Shown one piece after another: positions 30,080-30,540 of a DNA stretch of 64,000 nt (its first letter is position 1; every line of letters starts with the position of its first letter). Made by a program: the position numbers and the translations under genes. The notes below the pieces were generated by a model, which saw only the letters and a program-made list of their open reading frames with translations, made no database searches and was not told where the DNA came from. Location: contig OX597834.1 of assembly GCA_951406725.2 (NCBI GenBank), positions 11,594,001-11,658,000 on the forward strand, read 5' to 3'. Origin of the DNA: Octopus vulgaris (lineage: Eukaryota).

Positions 30080-30540
30080 AATATAAGAGAGTGGTCACTA
30101 TATGGCTCACTCTAGCACCAGTTAATCCAAAAGGTTTCAACCACAAAAATACATGTTTCCCATGAAAGTCAGTACGATTGTTAGCTCACACGGACAGGGC
30201 AAATAAAAAATAACAAAAAAACAGATTATTTTGGGACAATTGTTTCGCTATTAATGAATTAAATGTAATTTTACTTACAAAAAAATCCACTTGTAGCTCG
30301 TCAGCCAAAACTATCTGGATGAAATCCACTCAATCACACGCCAGATTTTACCATAACGATAAATACACGTGTGGTTCAATTGATTACATCCGACGTTATA
30401 ATTCAAATGCCCCAACTAACAGCGCGCCAAACTTTCACGGAAAACAAATACTGCATTTAGAAATAAATGTAGCATAATTATAATTAATTAATAAGGGTGA
30501 GAGAATTAGATACAATTATCTCACCCTTATTAATTAATTA
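30080..30540 (-). mobile_element. (TA)n-flanked element carrying the intact hammerhead and a terminal hairpin (Penelope pseudo-LTR-like)
   Basis: Flanked by (TA)n, with an inverted repeat at 30481-30540. A partial homolog lies at 32628-32740. Confidence 0.55.
30229..30310 (-). ncRNA. Type I hammerhead ribozyme motif, intact core
   Basis: Minus strand: UUUUGG-CUGACGA-GCUA(long loop)UAGC-GAAA-C-AAUU-G-UC^CCAAAA. Stem I is 6 bp, stem II 4 bp, and stem III is a short palindrome (ACAAUUGU), with a GUC cleavage triplet. Confidence 0.8.

Follow-up and report, generated by a model that had tools for sequence, protein, structure and literature searches.

The window, by which we mean the whole analysed stretch of 64,000 nt of Octopus vulgaris DNA, holds part of a kainate-receptor-like gene on the minus strand. 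One minus-strand exon matches GluK2 residues 64-151 (E 1.5e-19), and a second matches residues 148-219 (E 2e-5). The intron between them begins with GT at 50496, ends with AG at 12000-11999 and is 38,498 bp long. The same strand of this intron carries a hammerhead motif at 30310-30229. Since two consecutive minus-strand exons matching GluK2 bound the intron, the ribozyme is sense to the GluK-like pre-mRNA, and the initial annotation was right to place it on the sense strand of a glutamate-receptor intron of about 38 kb. The features of the locus are as follows.

50497..50752, minus strand: exon before the host intron in the kainate-receptor-like gene, for part of the amino-terminal domain (GluK2 about 64-148), with an approximate 5' boundary
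11999..50496, minus strand: GT-AG host intron, 38,498 bp
11823..11998, minus strand: exon after the host intron in the kainate-receptor-like gene (GluK2 about 148-211), with an approximate 3' boundary
30229..30310, minus strand: type I hammerhead core with CUGACGA at 30304-30298, GAAA, stem III ACAAUUGU and the predicted cut between 30235 and 30234 (sequence reading, descriptor scan, covariation)
30222..30317, minus strand: hammerhead including the extended stem I (12/13 bp) and a long structured stem II with an inner UGUAA-GUAAAA-UUACA hairpin
30076..30513, minus strand: main arm of the insertion, unit 257 to 535 then 1 to 159 (438/535 nt), with one ribozyme; 3' end at fixed site A (...CACTCTCTTATATTTATT then (TA)n)
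30519..30542, plus strand: short inverted arm, unit 268-291; 3' end at fixed site B (...CACCCTTATTAATTAATTA then (TA)n)
30055..30075, no strand: (TA)n target microsatellite next to site A
30543..30558, no strand: (TA)n target microsatellite next to site B, adjoining an (AG)n run

Direct reading of the minus strand gives a complete type I core, UUUUGG-CUGACGA-GCUA...UAGC-GAA-ACAAUUGU-C-CCAAAA, with the cleavage triplet GUC. CUGANGA, GAAA, NUH and three stems, with stem I open, are all present, and a descriptor scan found this motif and no other type I hammerhead in the window. In block-wise dinucleotide shuffles, 0/500 matched at the motif's own stringency and 24/500 at a loose stringency. The core nucleotides, strand, triplet and cut site given in the initial annotation thus agree with both the reading and the scan, and stem III is indeed a palindrome, a self-complementary octamer. 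The other two stems had been described in part. The 6-bp stem I is paired as claimed, but the real stem is longer (12/13 bp); stem II is present, but its supposed AU-rich loop is a folded extension with the inner UGUAA/UUACA hairpin. No Rfam family reached its gathering score in the window. The Rfam hammerhead models including HH9/HH10, which had been proposed as a check, returned nothing at E<=10 over 29500-31000. Weak Rfam miRNA matches in the window turned out to be the palindrome and TA runs, not miRNA.

The insertion spans 30076-30542 (467 bp), and its 24-bp inverted arm creates a palindrome at 30479-30542. The 438-base main arm differs from six related arms at 2 positions, and copies on many contigs are 93-99% identical to the 460 bp around the ribozyme. 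Another high-copy repeat, at 29790-30030, adjoins the insertion on its 3' side (contig depth high in two runs), and contigs placed on the locus break off at the microsatellites. Elsewhere in the window, at 15226-15715, 19347-20086 and 46789-47311, tandem units of 181-184 bp with short TA runs between them resemble a common short repeat present in many flanks.

The repeat family and its insertion ends

The 22-mer at the 3' side of the ribozyme has 2,134 exact matches in the genome and the other ribozyme half has 1,949, while the reversed-pattern controls have 0. The full unit is a non-coding sequence of 535 bp (z -6.9 for its RNA fold), and copies occur singly or in head-to-tail arrays with a 535-bp period, in (TA)n. 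In the C1 set, 33 insertions taken in position order, lengths range from 326 to 7,151 bp, and 18 of the 33 carry at least two ribozymes on one strand, with a maximum of 13; the window copy has one. Extrapolation from 33 insertions per 100 matches gives a family total of about 700. Nearly all insertion ends adjoin (TA)n among the loci read, and the presence of (TA)n on both flanks makes any target-site duplication illegible. Eleven loci with site B and no ribozyme match proved to be truncated or variant copies.

The family has the features of a retrozyme: tandem hammerhead units, non-coding, no LTR and no attached reverse transcriptase (RT) ORF. It also has those of a non-autonomous Penelope-like element, namely fixed 3' ends, 5' truncation, tandem and inverted copies, and a tail at one end. 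Judged from its sequence, the window ribozyme is part of a young 535-nt animal non-LTR retrozyme and is not specific to the locus. The suspected link to Penelope termini and retrozymes therefore holds, given this repeated non-coding unit with retrozyme anatomy, and so does the fallback reading as a young retroelement relic, given the high copy number and the 2 differences in 438 bases.

The 5' starts of the arms are variable, and the 3' ends lie at unit position 161 (site A) or 291 (site B), 130 nt apart. Among the C1 insertions, for which four worn ends were judged by eye, all 16 two-armed ones combine A with B, and the 17 single-armed ones end at A (10) or B (7). If ends were independent, this pairing would arise with a chance of about 9e-6. 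The same rule was seen in 23/23 top-hit insertions (a set selected for the A end), in 3/3 clear cases from 11 loci found by the site-B pattern, and in 7/7 two-armed insertions from 12 loci fetched afterwards as a check. Altogether, 49/49 two-armed insertions read are A/B. No A/A or B/B pair was found at 26 loci of a sister family, several of which are worn or complex.

The unit of this sister family (L152:1300-1829; loci L150-L175 and L136/L109) is 530 bp long, with 163 exact pattern matches; it has the same two end sites, a GUA cleavage triplet and U-U at 10.1-11.1. ORF fragments beside sister copies, for example at L158, are separate insertions and not part of the element. Beside other insertions (L250:839-1054, L269:7276-7481 and the 3' flank of L004) lies a more remote relative, whose sequence in the region of sites A and B is about 68% like that of the sister unit; together with its neighbours it shows that elements nest in one another's (TA)n ends. 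Further type I hammerhead repeats, unrelated in appearance, lie at L073:619-704(-), L077:31-131(+), L243:2618-2722(-), L275:6667-6768(+) and L264:6532-6623(+), and stem III is self-complementary in most of them.

Divergence in the C1 set, with one misaligned segment of L130 excluded, is 0.28% within an arm, 0.29% between the arms and 2.5% between insertions. In 5 of the 19 multi-unit insertions, every unit has variants that are private to the locus. By comparison of sequences, we have shown that the two arms of an insertion share one haplotype. Arrays traverse the ribozyme cleavage point 167 times: 165 passages are exact, 2 have substitutions and 0 have indels; of 49 arm starts, a single one is found 10 nt or less from this point. 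The lack of indels and of any pile-up of starts indicates circles or uncut multimers as templates, and not linear monomers left by cleavage. The array at L031:2705-8833 departs from the single-haplotype arrays by a haplotype pattern of period 4, which may reflect a multimer template or local duplication, and at L036 one variant is confined to the 5' units. These unit-to-unit patterns suggest that some templates were multimers and not monomer circles.

Origin of the insertions and candidate mobiliser

In our view the motif serves to process a young retrozyme whose mobility likely depends on Hydra-clade Penelope-like elements acting in trans, and the window copy is truncated, probably neutral and predicted to cut poorly; we give this reading a probability of about 80%. 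Tandem transcripts would cut themselves in the form of double hammerheads paired at the palindromic stem III, and the monomers would be ligated into circles. The element's endonuclease would cut both strands of a (TA)n target, and each target 3' end would prime one reverse transcriptase, at site A or at site B, on a single RNA. Rolling synthesis on the circle, or on a multimer left uncut, would yield concatemers. Finally, the two same-sense cDNAs would be connected head to head where they share short microhomologies, in many cases close to local hairpins. In the 18 arm joints read, there is an overlap of 0-6 nt or a gap of up to 5 nt.

The broader proposal is that Penelope-like elements integrate by paired priming, with an RT dimer on one RNA and both cut ends primed at two dedicated sites, so that inverted repeats, the one-sided tail and rolling-circle concatemers are products of one mechanism. 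We would put its chances at about even. Near mirror-symmetric joints are in excess (17/46, compared with a shuffle mean of 5.7), and such joints are also expected from a fold-back step, which we count against paired priming. In a fold-back geometry, the same element would be primed once, at B; a fold-back, or a switch of template to the newly made cDNA, followed by endonuclease resolution at A, would produce the inverted arm and the 130-nt tail. Besides the symmetric joints, this would explain the matched haplotypes of the arms, and it has precedents in print, since self-priming has been proposed for head-to-head repeats (PMC3846280) and endonuclease resolution for the tail (PMC8557442). However, it requires the A arm to be a subset of the B arm, and the A arm is the longer one in 5/16 C1 insertions, and also at L031 (6,129 vs 195 bp) and in the window copy (438 vs 24 bp). 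Single-armed insertions end at A alone in 10/17 cases and 29/46 joints are asymmetric. Fold-back is therefore an unlikely origin of these insertions. It is less probable still that the arrays are satellite-like, with single insertions expanded by local unequal crossover and homogenised with no circular RNA template: the period-4 pattern of L031 and the local amplification proposed in the preprint 10.64898/2026.07.22.740005 would fit, but the arrays are short, dispersed, variably 5'-truncated, 3'-fixed and homogeneous across inverted arms, and 10 insertions have two arms that are each longer than one unit.

A related ribozyme family with 1,279 matches occurs on the downstream side of an RT-endonuclease ORF. 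Of 50 loci of this lineage, among them two duplicates of loci sampled earlier, 35 have a ribozyme of the same design 0.6-1.7 kb downstream of the ORF. Three of the four intact ORFs of 970-984 aa share 98-99.7% identity with L261, and the set L261-L276 also includes a second group of about 840 aa; Asn-rich inserts were seen in the group of about 980 aa. A motif scan of the L261-L276 ORFs found RWK (matched by regex in 5/16 ORFs), DKT, CxCx5C, CxxC and CxH and no CCHH; the elements target (TA)n and carry a hammerhead. This corresponds to the features listed for the Hydra clade in PMC8557442. By motif match, L261-L276 would be young Hydra-clade Penelope-like elements; a Pfam search of their ORFs gave no relevant match. 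Their loci also have two end sites, about 100-115 nt apart, and 21/22 two-armed loci, judged by eye, are A/B. The insertion L262 has A/A ends, which counts against the model.

Outside the ribozyme, blastn found no significant similarity between the unit and the Hydra termini, only AT-rich noise. The A-to-B segment scored z 0.9-1.6 against these termini, which is not significant, with a small sample of the 6,468-15,859 candidates scored, and the z of 4.4 for the ribozyme is inflated by the common hammerhead core. Having found no DNA homology outside the ribozyme, we infer the mobiliser from shared ribozyme design and behaviour: an intact Hydra-clade element likely mobilises the unit in trans. 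Another young element ending in (TA)n, with a 781-aa ORF for RT and GIY-YIG (L100-L107), may be the mobiliser instead; no hammerhead was found in the 8 copies examined. Forty loci with a GIY-YIG domain (PF01541) gave no terminus resembling the unit. Upstream of the 781-aa ORF lies an overlapping ORF of 330-480 aa with no Pfam match, and one copy (L105) has a tail of about 40 bp at one end.

The ribozyme, the host intron and the meaning of the family

In about 155-175 units compared, the core position at which many loci differ is N7, where all four bases were seen. The core variant U4C at 2 loci and the U-U at 10.1-11.1 of the sister family count against the favoured reading. In the sister family, stem I is swapped in a compensatory manner to CUCUA/UAGAG, with stem III and the inner hairpin kept. 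Across 12 sequences of four families, 10/20 pairs show both-sided change, and the covariation score is 0.447, a value inflated by the relatedness of the sequences according to the tool's own warning; 0/500 shuffles reached it. This covariation across sister families supports the hammerhead fold, and from the N7 variation and covariation together the ribozyme looks selected, an indirect pointer to self-cleavage.

Of 96 distinct ribozyme sequences, 77 have a stem III that is its own full complement, with six different octamers represented. For the window copy, stem III has 2 bp as a monomer with a pairing probability of about 0, and the intermolecular duplex is predicted at -6.4 kcal/mol; stems I and II in a 1 kb context have a predicted formation probability of 0.95 or more. 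The lone copy is thus predicted to need a partner through its 8-nt self-complementary stem III and to cut poorly as a monomer. A hammerhead design with a short palindromic stem III is described as requiring a second copy (PMC4209133), and with one ribozyme copy in the window, efficient cutting of the intron is not expected. Weak monomer activity is a prediction of limited certainty, since single-motif retrozymes of coral and mussel do cleave, with kobs of about 0.8 and 0.1 per min (PMC7229834).

The initial annotation had proposed that the motif cuts the nascent glutamate-receptor intron and alters its splicing or turnover, and had itself said that hundreds of identical neutral copies lacking locus-specific conservation would reduce it to a relic. 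An intact core on the sense strand, together with the stable predicted stems I and II, would permit such an action, and a hammerhead with a 2-bp stem III can cut alone, as the axolotl Amex2 does as a single motif (22% in 1 h; PMC7229834). But half of that condition is borne out: there are 2,134 exact copies of the 3' 22-mer, the arm differs from its nearest relatives at only 2 of 438 positions, and the window has a single ribozyme with stem III predicted to be open. The anatomy is also that of an ordinary A/B insertion. A co-opted or otherwise consequential intronic ribozyme is therefore very improbable. The window copy is a truncated and probably neutral insertion.

Parts of this picture are already in print, as the portions of PMC7229834, PMC8557442, PMC3846280 and the preprint 10.64898/2026.07.22.740005 considered here describe retrozymes and their Penelope-like link, inverted copies and the one-sided tail. 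Literature searches turned up no retrozyme from a cephalopod, no tie of retrozymes to the Hydra clade and no obligatory pairing of two end sites, and supplements and repeat libraries may already hold the family. The motif is a real ribozyme, ordinary as a locus, and its family carries a useful mechanistic signature. As a regulator of the glutamate-receptor host it likely has no importance. The family informs on the origin of retrozyme arrays, through one haplotype per insertion and exact passage through the cleavage point, and on how Penelope-like elements form inverted ends and a one-sided tail, through strict A/B pairing on one template. If paired priming is true, the family would be a natural record of this mechanism, with the Hydra clade as the named candidate enzyme. 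The model becomes testable in an existing in vitro assay through an intact, young enzyme of the Hydra clade and a 535-nt RNA whose two start sites are mapped, and about 700 insertions would permit testing selection against sense-strand intronic ribozymes.

Comparison with known systems

The amniote intronic hammerheads HH9 and HH10 are single-copy and conserved. The window motif is like them in being a type I hammerhead on the sense strand of a long intron; it differs in having no Rfam match and in being multi-copy, very young and transposon-borne.

Animal non-LTR retrozymes, as described in the sections used of PMC7229834 and the preprint 10.64898/2026.07.22.740005, resemble the octopus family more closely: they share a non-coding tandem unit of low GC with one type I hammerhead, a highly self-paired RNA, a short palindromic stem III, thousands of motifs and co-occurring Penelope-like elements. 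The octopus unit of 535 nt is above the range of 170-400 nt given in PMC7229834 and inside the 51-972 bp of the preprint. Compared with the retrozymes in those sections, the octopus family, known here from genomic DNA alone, stands apart by its long stem II, its (TA)n targeting and its two-armed insertions under a strict A/B rule.

Hydra-clade Penelope-like elements, in the corresponding part of PMC8557442, share with the octopus family canonical hammerheads, insertion into (TA)n and head-to-head inverted copies; unlike them, the window family has no ORF. The ORF-bearing octopus relatives have the RWK, DKT, CxCx5C, CxxC and CxH motifs of that clade and, like it, no CCHH. The octopus tail between the end sites is about 100-130 nt, compared with 30-40 bp in other Penelope-like clades according to the same part of that paper.

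The Anolis Poseidon element PAc, studied in vitro (PMC11167929), supports several parts of the model. It cuts both strands of AT-rich DNA and extends both, it has two internal RNA start sites that define the tail, a dimer is predicted, and its hammerhead needs assistance. The start site of PAc is equal on both strands, whereas the octopus insertions use different sites at their two ends in 49/49 cases.
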